Assembly: GCF_003334255.1 (NCBI RefSeq)
Contig: NZ_QOWU01000107.1
Length of the DNA: 4,768 nucleotides
DNA from: Escherichia coli
Lineage (GTDB): Bacteria > Pseudomonadota > Gammaproteobacteria > Enterobacterales > Enterobacteriaceae
Direction: 5' to 3' (one strand)
Shown: positions 1 to 4,768 of the stretch, one piece after another
Layout: every line of letters begins with the position of its first letter
Numbering within the stretch: the first letter of the stretch is position 1
The notes under the pieces: model-generated
What the model saw: the letters and a program-made list of their open reading frames with translations, nothing else
Told to the model about the DNA's origin: nothing
Database searches by the model: none
Translations under genes and position numbers: made by a program

Positions 1-180
1 CACGCCTGAAGGGAAAGCTGCACGTTATCAGCAAGCGTTACACTCAGCGCATTGAGCGACATAATCTGAATCTGAGACAACATCTGGCAAGGCTGGGACG
101 GAAGTTACTGTCGTTCTCAAAATCGGTGGAGTTGCATGACAAGGTCATCGGGCATTATCTGAACATAAAACACTATCAGT
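1..180 (+). CDS. insB: IS1 transposase InsB, C-terminal fragment (5' end outside window)
   Basis: Open frame from nt 3 to TAA at 178-180 (59 codons), near-identical to the recalled IS1 InsB C-terminus. Two residues differ from the canonical copy as I recall it (KLL for KSL, KVIG for KIIG), suggesting an IS1 iso-form. Confidence 0.85.
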
Positions 181-197
181 AAGTTGGAGTCATTACC
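175..197. repeat. IS1 terminal inverted repeat (right end)
   Basis: 23-bp sequence atcagtaagttggagtcattacc matches the IS1 IR consensus. Confidence 0.85.
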
Positions 198-267
198 TCC
201 TCCCGAACTCAAAGCTATCATACAGATAATTACTGGTTAACCCTATATAGGGCATTTTAAAGTGTTG

Positions 268-633
268 TGATCTTACCCAGCAATAGTGGACACGCGGCTA
301 AGTGAGTAAACTCTCAGTCAGAGGTGACTCACAAGACAAAACAGTTTCAACCAGTAAAAAAACGTAAACACCATTCGCATGAATTTCGTAGTTAAGATCT
401 GAAGCTTGCAGAATGCATCGGTATTACTGCCGGAGTCCGTGAACTTAGTCTGCATGAATCACCACAGCTTTACATCTGTCGCAGTAAACAGCAAAATCAG
501 CAAACTTACTTAATTATATCGAGTGCGATTACAATCGCTGGCGATGGTACAGTTGGTGTGGCGGTCTCAGTCCGGAACAATTTGAAAATCAGAATCTCAC
601 TTAAAACGGCATCCATTTTACAAAAGATGGCCG
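268..633 (+). mobile_element. IS3-like (IS3 family, IS3 group) remnant with a large internal deletion: left IR plus degenerate orfA 5' part joined to orfB 3' end plus degenerate right IR
   Basis: Sequence from 268 (tgatcttacccagcaatagtggacacgcggctaagtgagtaaactctcagtcagaggtgactcac) matches the recalled IS3 left end. Downstream sequence is diverged orfA-like coding (..KQQNQQ). At about 505-512 it switches to sequence encoding [31 protein letters not shown] (509-604), compared with IS3 InsF C-terminus [31 protein letters not shown]. The right IR region (about 596-633) is recognisable but degenerate. Confidence 0.75.
333..604 (+). pseudogene. Degenerate IS3-like transposase remnant: orfA 5' fragment (start codon ATG replaced by AAG, frameshifts, in-frame TAA) fused by deletion to the last 32 codons of orfB
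   Basis: AAG at 333-335 sits where IS3 orfA has ATG. Translation tracks IS3 OrfA (TKTVSTSKK.., [18 protein letters not shown]) only with indels and a stop. The orfB tail frame is intact from 509 to TAA at 602-604. Confidence 0.7.
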
Positions 634-893
634 TCTGTGTATTTGTAATGAATACCTTCTACATGTTTAGAGTGCATAATCCACGACAAGGCGATATCCT
701 AAAAATTAGCTAGCAGGCAACTTTGATGGCATAGATAATGTTTTTAGTAAAAAAGAGTTGACTGAATATAATACAGCCTCTTCCTACATAAGAAGGAATG
801 TGCTCACAAAAAAAAACCATTAGTCTGCTTCCTGTTCTTACAATAATCAGTATTATGTATTTTATTTATATAGCAAAATATGCTTGTTACACC

Positions 894-902
894 TGTCATA
901 AT
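894..902 (+). promoter_or_regulatory. Candidate extended -10 promoter element (TGtCATAAT) upstream of the small ORF
   Basis: TG at 894-895 lies one base upstream of hexamer CATAAT at 897-902, about 42 bp upstream of ATG 944. No convincing -35 was found, consistent with an extended -10 promoter. A purine-rich Shine-Dalgarno GGGGGAGA lies at 933-940. Confidence 0.25.
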
Positions 903-943
903 TAGGCATGGTAAAATTATTGACTGAACCCTGGGGGAGAAAG

Positions 944-1201
944 ATGCACAGTGATTATTATAATATGGTTTTTGGTGAAAAATTGGCCAATATTTTATAT
1001 GAAGCTAACTCTCAATTTTTTTACGAGAGAAATGTCATAGAAGAGGCAGTCAACGCTTTATTCTGTGAGCGTGAAATAATAAACAACAAGAACATAATAA
1101 AGAAGCTGATGTTCTTTTTGTCAGATGTTAATCACACCAAGAAAGATGTTGTTCAGAGCGCACTTAATATTATCATTGACATTACATCAGGTGATATTTG
1201 A
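944..1201 (+). CDS. Hypothetical small acidic protein (85 aa), AT-rich, no family recognised
   Basis: The ORF runs 908-1201 in the track. I favour ATG 944 (MHSDYYNMVFGEKLANILYEANSQ...) because GGAG at 936-939 sits 4 nt upstream, whereas ATG 908 has only AGG at 1-nt spacing. The sequence is strongly AT-biased with asparagine/isoleucine/lysine-rich codon usage typical of horizontally acquired DNA. Confidence 0.45.
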   Translation: MHSDYYNMVFGEKLANILYEANSQFFYERNVIEEAVNALFCEREIINNKNIIKKLMFFLSDVNHTKKDVVQSALNIIIDITSGDI

Positions 1202-1478
1202 GATTTTACATAAAGGATAATCTCTCAAGGAGTCTTATCTGAAAACGAAATATATAGTCCCTCTCGTTTTGTAATATCGATTGGCTTTGTTGAATCGGTT
1301 ACGTACCCCGGAGCCGGTCATATTTTCAGGTAATACACACGCTTTCAGACATTTCGGCTTTCGTCATTTTGGTATCATGGGCATAGCTTCTGCTACCTGA
1401 CCATCATAATCACGCAGCTTCAGTGAAGCAGTGACCACCTGTTTAACCCGGTGTATCGTTATGATCTTATCCAGCAAT

Positions 1479-1818: not shown

Positions 1819-1933
1819 AGTGTTTTACATTTCTTTGGCCTCAGGCCCGCGCATGTTGCCATTCGATGTCATTTTCCTGACTCGTTTCTTCTTTATGGTG
1901 TAGTGTGATCTTCACTTTATGGATGCTAACAAT

Positions 1934-3292
1934 ATGAAAAGAAAAATTATTCCCGTGCTAATCGGTTGTACGCTCTCTTTCTCTGCCCTGGCGGCACAAC
2001 CTACGGCTGAGCGCTATGTCGTCAGTTTTCCAGAAGGCACGCACGTGAACTACGCCGGCGCATTTGCCAGTGCATTCCCGAACGGCCTTCCGGTTGGGAT
2101 AGGTTCTGGCCTGCTGTTCACCGGTAAACAGGGCGATGCCCTGACATTCGCAACCATTACCGATCGCGGTCCGAACGCGGATTCACCGAAAGAGGGGAAA
2201 AACGAAACTAAAATTTTCGTTACGCCAGATTTCGCGCCGCTGCTGATGACGATTCGTGTACAAAACGGCAAAGCGGAGGCCATCGATCCCCGTCCTCTGC
2301 ATGACGATAAAGGCGCGATCAACGGTCTGCCGCTGGCAAGCGACGTGATTGGCTCCACCAATGAAGTGGCCTTCAGCGACACGTTACATAGACTGAAGGG
2401 GGATAATCGCGGGCTGGATACGGAAGGGATCACTCCGGATGGTAAAGGAGGTTACTGGCTGTGCGATGAGTATGGCCCGTTCCTGATTAACATCGACAGT
2501 AAAGGGAAAATCCTGGCAATCCACGGTCCGCAGGCGGCGGAAGGGGAAAAAGCGATTGCGGGCGGTTTGCCAAATATCCTCAAATGGCGTCAGGCGAACC
2601 GCGGCTTTGAAGGCCTCACCCGTATGCCGGACGGGCGTATTATTGTCGCCGTGCAAAGTACGCTGGATATCGACGCTAAGAGCAAGAAAAAGGCGCTGTT
2701 TACGCGTCTGGTGAGCTTCGATCCGGCAAGCGGAAAAACCGCGATGTACGGTTATCCTATCGACAGCGCGGCCTACAGCAAAAACAGCGACGCTAAAATC
2801 GGAGACATCGTGGCGCTCGATAACCAGCACATCCTGCTGATCGAACAGGGAAGAGATAAAAACAACAGAATGCGTAACCTGATTTACGAGGTCGATCTCA
2901 ATAAGGCGAGCGACCTGTCAGGCTTCGACAAGCCGGGTGAGTATCCGGAGTTTGATGATGAGAAAACCCTGTCACAGCGCGGCATTACCCTTGCGCAGAA
3001 AACGCAGGTTGTTGATCTGCGCTCCTTGGGCTGGCAGCAGGAGAAGGCTGAAGGGTTGGCGCTGATCGACAGCAAAACGCTGGCGGTGGCGAACGATAAC
3101 GACTTTGGCGTGAAGGTGGCGATGCAACATCCGGTCGAGGGCAAGACATTCAAGGATTATCGGGTGAACGCGGAAGGAAAGCTGACGCTTGACGACAAGC
3201 AGGTTGAAACGACCCTCAGAGTGAAGCCACTGGAGAAACCGGAGTCTGACAGTGAACTGTGGATTGTGACGCTGCCGGAAGCGTTGAAATAA
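1934..3292 (+). CDS. Secreted beta-propeller protein of the phytase-like / SdiA-regulated (YjiK-like) superfamily, often annotated 'esterase-like activity of phytase family protein'; 452 aa from ATG 1934
   Basis: Long ORF 1919-3292. I favour ATG 1934 because it gives a classic Sec signal peptide (MKRKIIPVLIGCTLSFSALA|AQPT) and has GGA 10 nt upstream; ATG 1919 is the in-frame alternative. Motifs GIGSGL...ITDRGPN, DTEGITPDGKGGYWLCDEYGP, NRGFEGL and NDNDFG match recalled signatures of Pfam phytase-like (PF13449) and SdiA-regulated beta-propellers. Codon usage is typical enterobacterial and GC is clearly higher than in the AT-rich segment upstream. Confidence 0.9.
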   Translation: MKRKIIPVLIGCTLSFSALAAQPTAERYVVSFPEGTHVNYAGAFASAFPNGLPVGIGSGLLFTGKQGDALTFATITDRGPNADSPKEGKNETKIFVTPDFAPLLMTIRVQNGKAEAIDPRPLHDDKGAINGLPLASDVIGSTNEVAFSDTLHRLKGDNRGLDTEGITPDGKGGYWLCDEYGPFLINIDSKGKILAIHGPQAAEGEKAIAGGLPNILKWRQANRGFEGLTRMPDGRIIVAVQSTLDIDAKSKKKALFTRLVSFDPASGKTAMYGYPIDSAAYSKNSDAKIGDIVALDNQHILLIEQGRDKNNRMRNLIYEVDLNKASDLSGFDKPGEYPEFDDEKTLSQRGITLAQKTQVVDLRSLGWQQEKAEGLALIDSKTLAVANDNDFGVKVAMQHPVEGKTFKDYRVNAEGKLTLDDKQVETTLRVKPLEKPESDSELWIVTLPEALK

Positions 3293-3530
3293 GTTTATAA
3301 GGTACGGACAGCAGTATCGCTTAGTTTTTCAAATTCATGTATGTGAACAATATTGGGGTTCCGGCGTAGACCCCCAATGAAAGCGTCACCACGTGAAAAC
3401 ATGCCTGCACGGTTTACACGTCATCCCATGGTGGCAGCCGGTTAACTTTCCTGCTACACCAGTGGAAAAAGGCCATAAGCAGTCCGAACAAAAGTAAGCG
3501 TACAGCGAGGGCCGTATTGACGGGGATGTG

Positions 3531-4768
3531 TTATTCAGCTGGCAGTGCTATGCGCCACGGAAGCAGTTCGCTGACCCGGTTGACCGGCCAGTCTGCTATG
3601 ACGCCAAGCACATGGCGAAGGTAGCTTTCTGGATCCACGTCATTCAGTTTGCACGTCCCGATCAGGCTGTACAGTAGCGCTCCCCGCTCACCACCATGGC
3701 CAGAGCCGAAGAACAGGGTCTTCATCTTTTCACGCAACCAGCTTTCCAGGGATTTCAACAGCGGTTTCGTTTTTCGCTGACGTTCAGCAAGCCGCTGCTA
3801 TGCCGGCATTCCCCTTATATCCGCCTCTATGGCGTACAACTGACCGATCTGCTCCAGGGCTTCTTCCGTCAGTGCTGACGGGATGCGGACGTGCATATCG
3901 TGGATCTTTCGGCGGGCATGAGCCCAGCAGGCAGCTTCCGTTATCCCACCATTGCGATACAGCTCGTTGAACCCGGCGTACGCATCCGCTTGCAGCACAC
4001 CGCTGAAGCAAGCAAGATGAGTCTGCGGATGGATGCCTTTTCTGTCCGGGCTGTAAGCGAACCTCACTGCAGGTGCCAACGCTGACCCGGCATTGCGGTC
4101 ATCACGAACATACGCCCACAACCGCCCGGTCTTCGTCTTCTTATTACCCGGCAGCAGTACCTGGACCGGGGTATCATCGGCATGGAGTTTGCCGTCAGTC
4201 ATGACATCGCCATGAAGCGCCTCTTCCAGCGGAGACAGCAGCCGGCAGCATGCATCCACCCAGCCCGACAGCAGTGAACGGCTCAGCTCCACACCTTGCC
4301 GGTCGTATATTTCTGACTGGCGATACAGCGGGGTGTGCTCTGCATACTTCGAGGTCAGCACGCGGGCCAGCAGCCCCGGTCCGGCGATACCCCGCTCGAT
4401 GGGCCGCGAAGGTGCAGGTGCCTGCACGATGGCATCGCACTGAGTACAGGCATGTTTTTCCCGTACCGTCCGGATAACCCGGAAGGCGCTACGCATCAAC
4501 TCCAGCTGTTCGGCGGTATCCTCGCCCAGATAGCTCAGTGAACCGCCGCAGTTCGGGCAGCACGGCGCCGCAGGCAACAGCCGCTTTTCGTCACGGGGTA
4601 GTGATTCAGGGAACGGCTTACGGGGGCGGGTCTGACGCAACGGACGCTGTACTGCCGGGTCATACACCCTACCAGTCAGCGTATCGCTCTCTATCGCTCT
4701 CTTTCTGAAGCCGGTTCAGATCGGCTTCCATTTGTGCGATACGGCGGGAGACTTTTTCGGAACGACTG
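3531..4768 (-). pseudogene. tnpC: IS66-family transposase (TnpC/orf3) pseudogene: N-terminal frameshift from a 10-bp tandem duplication, in-frame TAG, and a probable in-frame internal deletion
   Basis: Minus-strand ORF 4667-3798 (..[39 protein letters not shown]..) ends at TAG (complement of 3798-3800). The same frame continues [71 protein letters not shown] to 3531. Upstream of 4667 the conserved N-terminal sequence (..[25 protein letters not shown]) is in a different frame, offset by the duplication at 4682-4701. Confidence 0.85.
4682..4701. repeat. Perfect 10-bp tandem direct duplication (tatcgctctc x2) inside the IS66 transposase 5' region
   Basis: Read directly: 4682-4691 and 4692-4701 are identical. 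The unit is not a multiple of 3, so it shifts the frame. Removing one copy joins ..LQKESD to [17 protein letters not shown].. in one frame. Confidence 0.9.

Follow-up and report, generated by a model that had tools for sequence, protein, structure and literature searches.

Near the left end of the stretch of Escherichia coli DNA analysed here (4,768 nucleotides, referred to below as the window) lies a short region that resembles the insertion sequence IS3, and the question that it raises is whether this region is a small mobile element derived from a diverged relative of IS3, or the remains of an element that can no longer move. A preliminary description had placed an internally deleted IS3-like element at 268–633. 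The internal deletion is borne out, but the right limit of the element is 621, not 633, and judging from sequence comparisons, the element at 268–621 is most probably (we would put this at about 85%) an IS3-group insertion sequence reduced to a decaying relic that no longer moves. It encodes no functional product, and transposition is not possible. The relic is already known and ordinary: RefSeq annotation (PGAP) labels its pieces as IS3-family pseudogene fragments, with 303–507 entered as a hypothetical pseudogene that is frameshifted and contains an internal stop, and 500–604 as an 'IS3 family transposase, incomplete, missing N-terminus'.

We took the canonical IS3 of E. coli K-12 MG1655 (IS3A; IS3 family, IS3 group; insE/insF, 1258 bp) as the reference, and employed positions 200–760 of the window as the BLAST query. 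The collinear nucleotide homology obtained in this way establishes that the relic is derived from IS3: positions 271–505 correspond to IS3A nt 1–235 (88% identity, E = 9e-84), and positions 510–621, which comprise the 3' end of orfB and the inner part of the right repeat, correspond to IS3 nt 1134–1245 (84% identity, E = 1e-31). Adding the TGA at 268–270 extends the left arm to 268–505, or IS3 nt 1–238 in the 1258-bp numbering; within it, identity to IS3 is complete over the first 65 nt and 87% over the 5' part of orfA. Between the two arms, IS3 nt 239–1133 are absent, a loss of approximately 895 bp that takes away both the frameshift site and the catalytic core. The deletion junction falls within 501–512, where the breakpoint is ambiguous, with GCA(A) microhomology on both sides. 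This gap confirms the early reading that the 5' end of orfA is joined to the end of orfB (its last 96 nt) with roughly 0.9 kb lost, and the left end, which had been described as close to IS3, matches it at 65 of 65 positions. The descriptive core of the first observation is thus correct, far beyond chance.

An intact element of the IS3 family carries inverted repeats that open with 5'-TG and close with CA-3', at both ends, and is flanked by a 3-bp direct repeat of its target. The relic has neither two termini, nor a transposase, nor a target duplication, as an intact or mobilisable member of the family would. A DDE transposase produced from orfA and orfB through a programmed -1 frameshift is lacking, since IS3 nt 239–1133 are deleted, orfA is disabled, and just the last 31 codons of orfB are left. 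On the right side, a 39-bp repeat (IRR) would start about 10 nt upstream of position 605, inside the orfB tail, and the 17 non-coding nucleotides of the inner repeat (605–621, + strand) are strongly diverged, with 11 of 17 matching IS3. IS3 homology stops at 621. At 622–634, the outer 13 bp expected for this repeat (GTGGGTAGGATCA) are replaced by AAAAGATGGCCGT, which matches at 4 of 13 positions and is not derived from IS3; the terminal ...GGATCA, including the closing CA, is absent. The same 13 bp are kept in every other IS3-like copy that we aligned, and a repeat search of the window gave no inverted partner for 268–306. The proposal that both inverted repeats are retained consequently fails, with homology ending at 621 and the outer 13 bp missing, and the suggested search for a 3-bp target duplication returned none: positions 265–267 read TTG, 622–624 AAA, and 634–636 TCT.

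The 39-bp left inverted repeat (IRL; 268–306, + strand) lies inside a 65-nt stretch, 268–332, that is 100% identical to IS3. There are 0 substitutions in these first 65 nt versus 22 in the next 173 nt (Fisher p = 0.0008). The stretch is not intrinsically invariant, since one IS3 variant (L005) differs inside the same 65 nt. The perfect left end would most likely reflect gene conversion by live IS3 copies; a recombinant source element may also be its origin, and fits equally well. We consider it very unlikely that this end, which comprises the repeat and the IS3 leader/promoter region, has been kept for a function at the locus, be it transcription or OrfA-dependent regulation of the ariR/ymgB-like gene located about 300 bp downstream, or a role as a favoured site for recombination by which the fec-adjacent island is reshuffled. 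Among the few alleles sampled, the 65-nt stretch is itself polymorphic, at position 324 in plasmid pMRSN346647_113.1 (L007) and at two SNPs in strain SCU-176, so that within this sample the left end does not stand out as specially conserved. A promoter scan of 150–1300 yielded sites no more numerous than in shuffled sequence, and a terminator scan of the same interval yielded none. Rfam gave zero matches across the whole window, and a hairpin at 606–634 is unremarkable (z = -1.74).

The decayed 5' part of orfA, defined by alignment to IS3 nt 66–238, occupies 333–505 on the + strand and is annotated within the frameshifted pseudogene with the internal stop. Over its 173 nt it carries 22 substitutions together with three indels (-1, -2 and +3). 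The start codon is gone (ATG to AAG) and the frame is broken, a GAA codon has become the nonsense codon TAA, and a tryptophan is changed to cysteine. Synonymous and nonsynonymous substitutions number 10 versus 12, GC-to-AT changes outnumber AT-to-GC changes 14:2, and all of the differences are private to the relic among the variants compared. This pattern looks largely like pseudogene decay, perhaps with some older divergence accumulated under selection, and because it reads largely as decay after inactivation, a diverged source is not needed to account for the orfA arm. In the collections searched, no full-length element exceeded 88% identity to the arm, and part of the divergence may predate inactivation. 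The preliminary description had taken the heavily substituted orfA remnant as a mark of a diverged relative of IS3; the heavy substitution is real (22 of 173 positions), but divergence of the source does not follow from changes that are private and partly disabling.

The orfB tail presents a different case. The last 31 codons of orfB and the stop codon lie at 509–604 (+ strand), according to the translation and to the PGAP call of an IS3 family transposase missing its N-terminus. The C-terminal peptides first written for this region and for the end of K-12 InsF are both exact. When searched against the NCBIfam model of IS3 family transposases (NF033516), the tail aligns to residues 346–369 of 369, a weak match (E = 0.007) that scores 15.6 bits versus a cut-off of 160 bits. 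Compared to K-12 IS3, it has 13 differences over 96 coding nucleotides, 8 of them silent, corresponding to identities of 86.5% at the nucleotide level and of 26/31 residues in the protein. By ISfinder convention, less than 90% nucleotide or 95% amino acid identity defines a new insertion sequence, a limit meant for divergence accumulated in a functional element; with differences that are private and partly disabling in the orfA arm, the relic would be at most a candidate for such a status. Ten of the 13 differences are the same bases as those found in independent IS3-like isoforms on E. coli plasmids (L003a, L003b, L004, L005 and IS3H), and the R-to-W, H-to-Y and K-to-Q replacements are among the tail changes common to other isoforms. 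Such isoforms, for example the truncated copy on p542099_1 (CP091385.1) and another that PGAP names 'IS3H', occur on E. coli/Shigella-type virulence plasmids and have tail variant states in common with the relic, ...ENQNL... among them. The closest tail is that of a truncated copy on CP091385.1 (L003a), with 93.8% identity over the last 96 coding nucleotides. Together, these comparisons support the view that the tail would descend from a diverged IS3 isoform and not from canonical IS3, and with 10 of the 13 differences recurring in isoforms and 8 of the 13 synonymous, the earlier claim of a diverged relative stands for this part of the element.

The closest isoform copies that we fetched, which carry the WRWY motif (CP091385.1), are themselves truncated. 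Plasmid p542099_1, which is of the IncFIA type, harbours two truncated IS3-like copies, at 185–316 and 2055–2626. The first type is represented by a fragment of the tail alone, which contains an in-frame stop and ends in ...NLT* as the window does; the other copy is the WRWY variant nearest to the window tail. A scan for the WRWY motif in 100,044 GTDB species-representative genomes returned solely the relic itself, on one 249-bp contig (NZ_BOQB01000710.1) assigned to 'Bacillus sanguinis' BML-BC004, which is 99.6% identical to window positions 516–764. This contig is probably not a relative, as it is the same E. coli relic tail with its right flank; its presence in a Bacillus assembly is most likely due to enterobacterial contamination.

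The neighbourhood of the relic bears on where the element first landed. Immediately to its left, 198–267 (- strand) is a 70-bp internal fragment of a gene for an outer membrane protease of the omptin family, with 95.8% identity to an intact gene on plasmid pT28R-2 and the translation QHFKMPYIGLTSNYLYDSFEFG; PGAP calls it merely a partial hypothetical protein. The fragment is bounded on its own left by the right end of an IS1F-like IS1 element (1–197, + strand), which annotation and comparison identify as the boundary of the block. Beyond the point at which the relic is inserted, the intact omptin gene continues as TTTGTAGCC... / TTTGTAGCCTATAGC, and TTTGTAGCCTATAGC is absent from the window even when up to 3 mismatches are allowed. 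The right flank of the relic is therefore not the continuation of the interrupted gene. With an omptin fragment as the left flank, the anatomy suggests that the IS3-like element inserted into this gene, and that it was the original target.

Farther to the right, a second IS3-like left-repeat tip (TGATCTTATCCAGCAAT) is found at 1462–1478 on the + strand, in direct orientation and identical to 268–284 at 16 of 17 positions; over the wider interval 1458–1478 (GTTATGATCTTATCCAGCAAT), identity to 264–284 is 90%. To the left of this tip is an IS5/IS1182 fragment (approximately 1325–1455, - strand); on the right it abuts the terminus TGAACCGCCCC of a further fragment of the IS3 family, the transposase C-terminus of which is encoded at 1521–1631 on the - strand. 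The remainder of the window includes an AT-rich stretch with a gene for a 97-residue protein of the YmgB/AriR family (biofilm/acid-response regulator; 908–1201, + strand), an intact gene of the 'esterase-like activity of phytase' family (1919–3292, + strand), a DUF6404 fragment (3413–3490, - strand) and an IS66-family tnpC pseudogene with a frameshift and an internal stop (3530–4768, - strand). Taken as a whole, the window, located beside the fec operon, is a patchwork of debris from mobile elements.

We then consider how the relic is distributed. A 501-bp query that includes flanking sequence (positions 200–700), at a coverage of at least 80%, gave 1696 records in 1686 of 5426 complete E. coli genomes (about 31%), and the orfA arm at an identity of at least 95% gave 1704 records in the same 5426 genomes. 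Since these counts are nearly the same, the relic essentially never occurs without its own flanks. The genomes show a gap in identity between the relic (at least 95%) and canonical IS3 (around 85%), with two records in the 90–95% band, and the match at 88% in this survey corresponds to the recombinant type seen in strain HN68, described below. Relic copies have a median of one per genome, and the highest number is 4. At all six chromosomal loci fetched (S88, 300709, ACN001, HN68, SCU-176 and the type represented by the window), the relic follows fecIRABCDE, ykiE and IS1F, and the same left flank is present at all eight loci fetched, window included. Of the 1735 genomes that hold the right flank with its ariR/ymgB-like gene, 1648 have it linked to the relic; two exceptions that we sampled are secondary IS insertions with their own 5-bp duplications. 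A search for an empty site found none, and a search of the literature on the fec locus and IS elements found nothing relevant.

The relic is also carried by plasmids. Approximately 46 of them, from E. coli, Shigella and Salmonella, have the whole stretch 331–640, deletion included. In the one plasmid for which flanks were checked, pMRSN346647_113.1, window positions 1–1372, the relic and the ariR-like gene included, lie between two IS1 copies; we make no claim that this IS1-bounded block is a fresh composite transposon, its outer flanks being without a direct duplication. It had been suggested that the deletion derivative might behave as a non-autonomous mobile element, and that further copies be sought. 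The right terminus is lost, a target duplication is missing, and no copy turned up away from its own flanking block; wherever we checked the flanks, they are the same. There is no evidence that the relic moves by itself, and it is carried passively inside larger segments.

Variation at the locus stems from secondary IS insertions, deletions or recombination, and not from new insertions of the relic. Two strains illustrate this. In HN68 (NZ_CP141844.1, 1538–2792), the same locus holds a chimeric full-length IS3, in which the omptin flank and the mutations of the relic (the AAG start, the -1 and -2 deletions and an A-to-T change) extend to approximately IS3 nt 98 and are followed by canonical IS3; the right-hand context differs from that of the window and contains a tyrosine recombinase gene. 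Judged from this junction, the HN68 element arose when the relic underwent homologous crossover with a live IS3. In SCU-176 (NZ_CP054345.1, 2560–2610), the segment equivalent to window 306–1475 is deleted, which removes the ariR-like gene and the greater part of the relic and leaves the left repeat fused to the terminus of a different IS3-family fragment. The left repeat of SCU-176 has lost the preceding TTG and carries the same C-to-T variant as the tip at 1462–1478. The relic is thus a passive substrate for recombination, and its sole demonstrated activity is that of a homology patch for intact IS3 copies.

Several other origins can be weighed against this evidence. If the element had started as canonical IS3 and decayed where it stands, without a contribution from any diverged relative, its first 65 nt would be expected to match IS3 perfectly, as they do, and the private changes, the 14:2 bias and the disabling mutations of orfA would also be accounted for. 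Random decay would not, however, reproduce the bases of other isoforms at 10 of 13 tail differences, of which 8 are silent, nor bring the tail closer to L003a (93.8%) than to K-12 IS3 (86.5%), and we regard decay of a canonical copy as quite unlikely. The two arms could instead come from two IS3-like insertions, a canonical-type element on the left and a diverged isoform on the right, joined by recombination or by a deletion between neighbouring copies. The arms do differ in their pattern of divergence, the left-repeat tip at 1462–1478 indicates that more than one IS3-like end exists in the region, and recombination between the relic and another IS3 is seen in HN68. A single internal deletion is nevertheless more parsimonious; we judge the origin from two insertions rather unlikely, and in both cases the result would be a dead hybrid relic.

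A non-autonomous, MITE-like miniature derivative of IS3, with both ends kept and mobilised in trans by IS3 transposase, would be short and devoid of transposase, and would arise from an insertion sequence by internal deletion, all of which applies to the relic; the left repeat is moreover perfect, and most E. coli genomes contain live copies of IS3. Elements of this kind need both terminal repeats, and are recognized by several copies and by target duplications, whereas the relic has one intact end and no duplication: the outer 13 bp of the right repeat with the terminal CA are absent, and the right flank does not continue the omptin gene. Copies with different flanks were not encountered, as reflected in the nearly equal counts with and without flanks and in the stretch 331–640 shared by 46 plasmids, and the variation at the locus results from secondary events rather than from new insertions of the relic. 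This reading is already largely refuted, and we see it as extremely improbable.

The immobile relic would then have the following history. An IS3-like element would have inserted into a plasmid-type omptin gene, after which about 895 bp would have been lost internally, bringing orfA codon ~58 next to the final 31 orfB codons. A further loss would have removed the outer 13 bp of the right repeat along with the remainder of the omptin gene, and IS1 would have cut away the left side, sparing 70 bp of omptin sequence. Since then, the orfA arm would have gathered its disabling mutations with a GC-to-AT bias. The order of these events, from the internal deletion to the truncation of the right end and the IS1 cut, is one that we infer.

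The significance of the relic in itself is very small, as islands of E. coli commonly contain such remains of insertion sequences. It retains a piece of an IS3 isoform lineage of which an intact copy was not found in the collections searched. It is, in addition, a stable marker of a mosaic block, made up of the omptin fragment, the relic and the ariR-like gene, that sits beside fec and also occurs on plasmids, and the HN68 locus shows clearly how a dead IS fragment can recombine with a live one.
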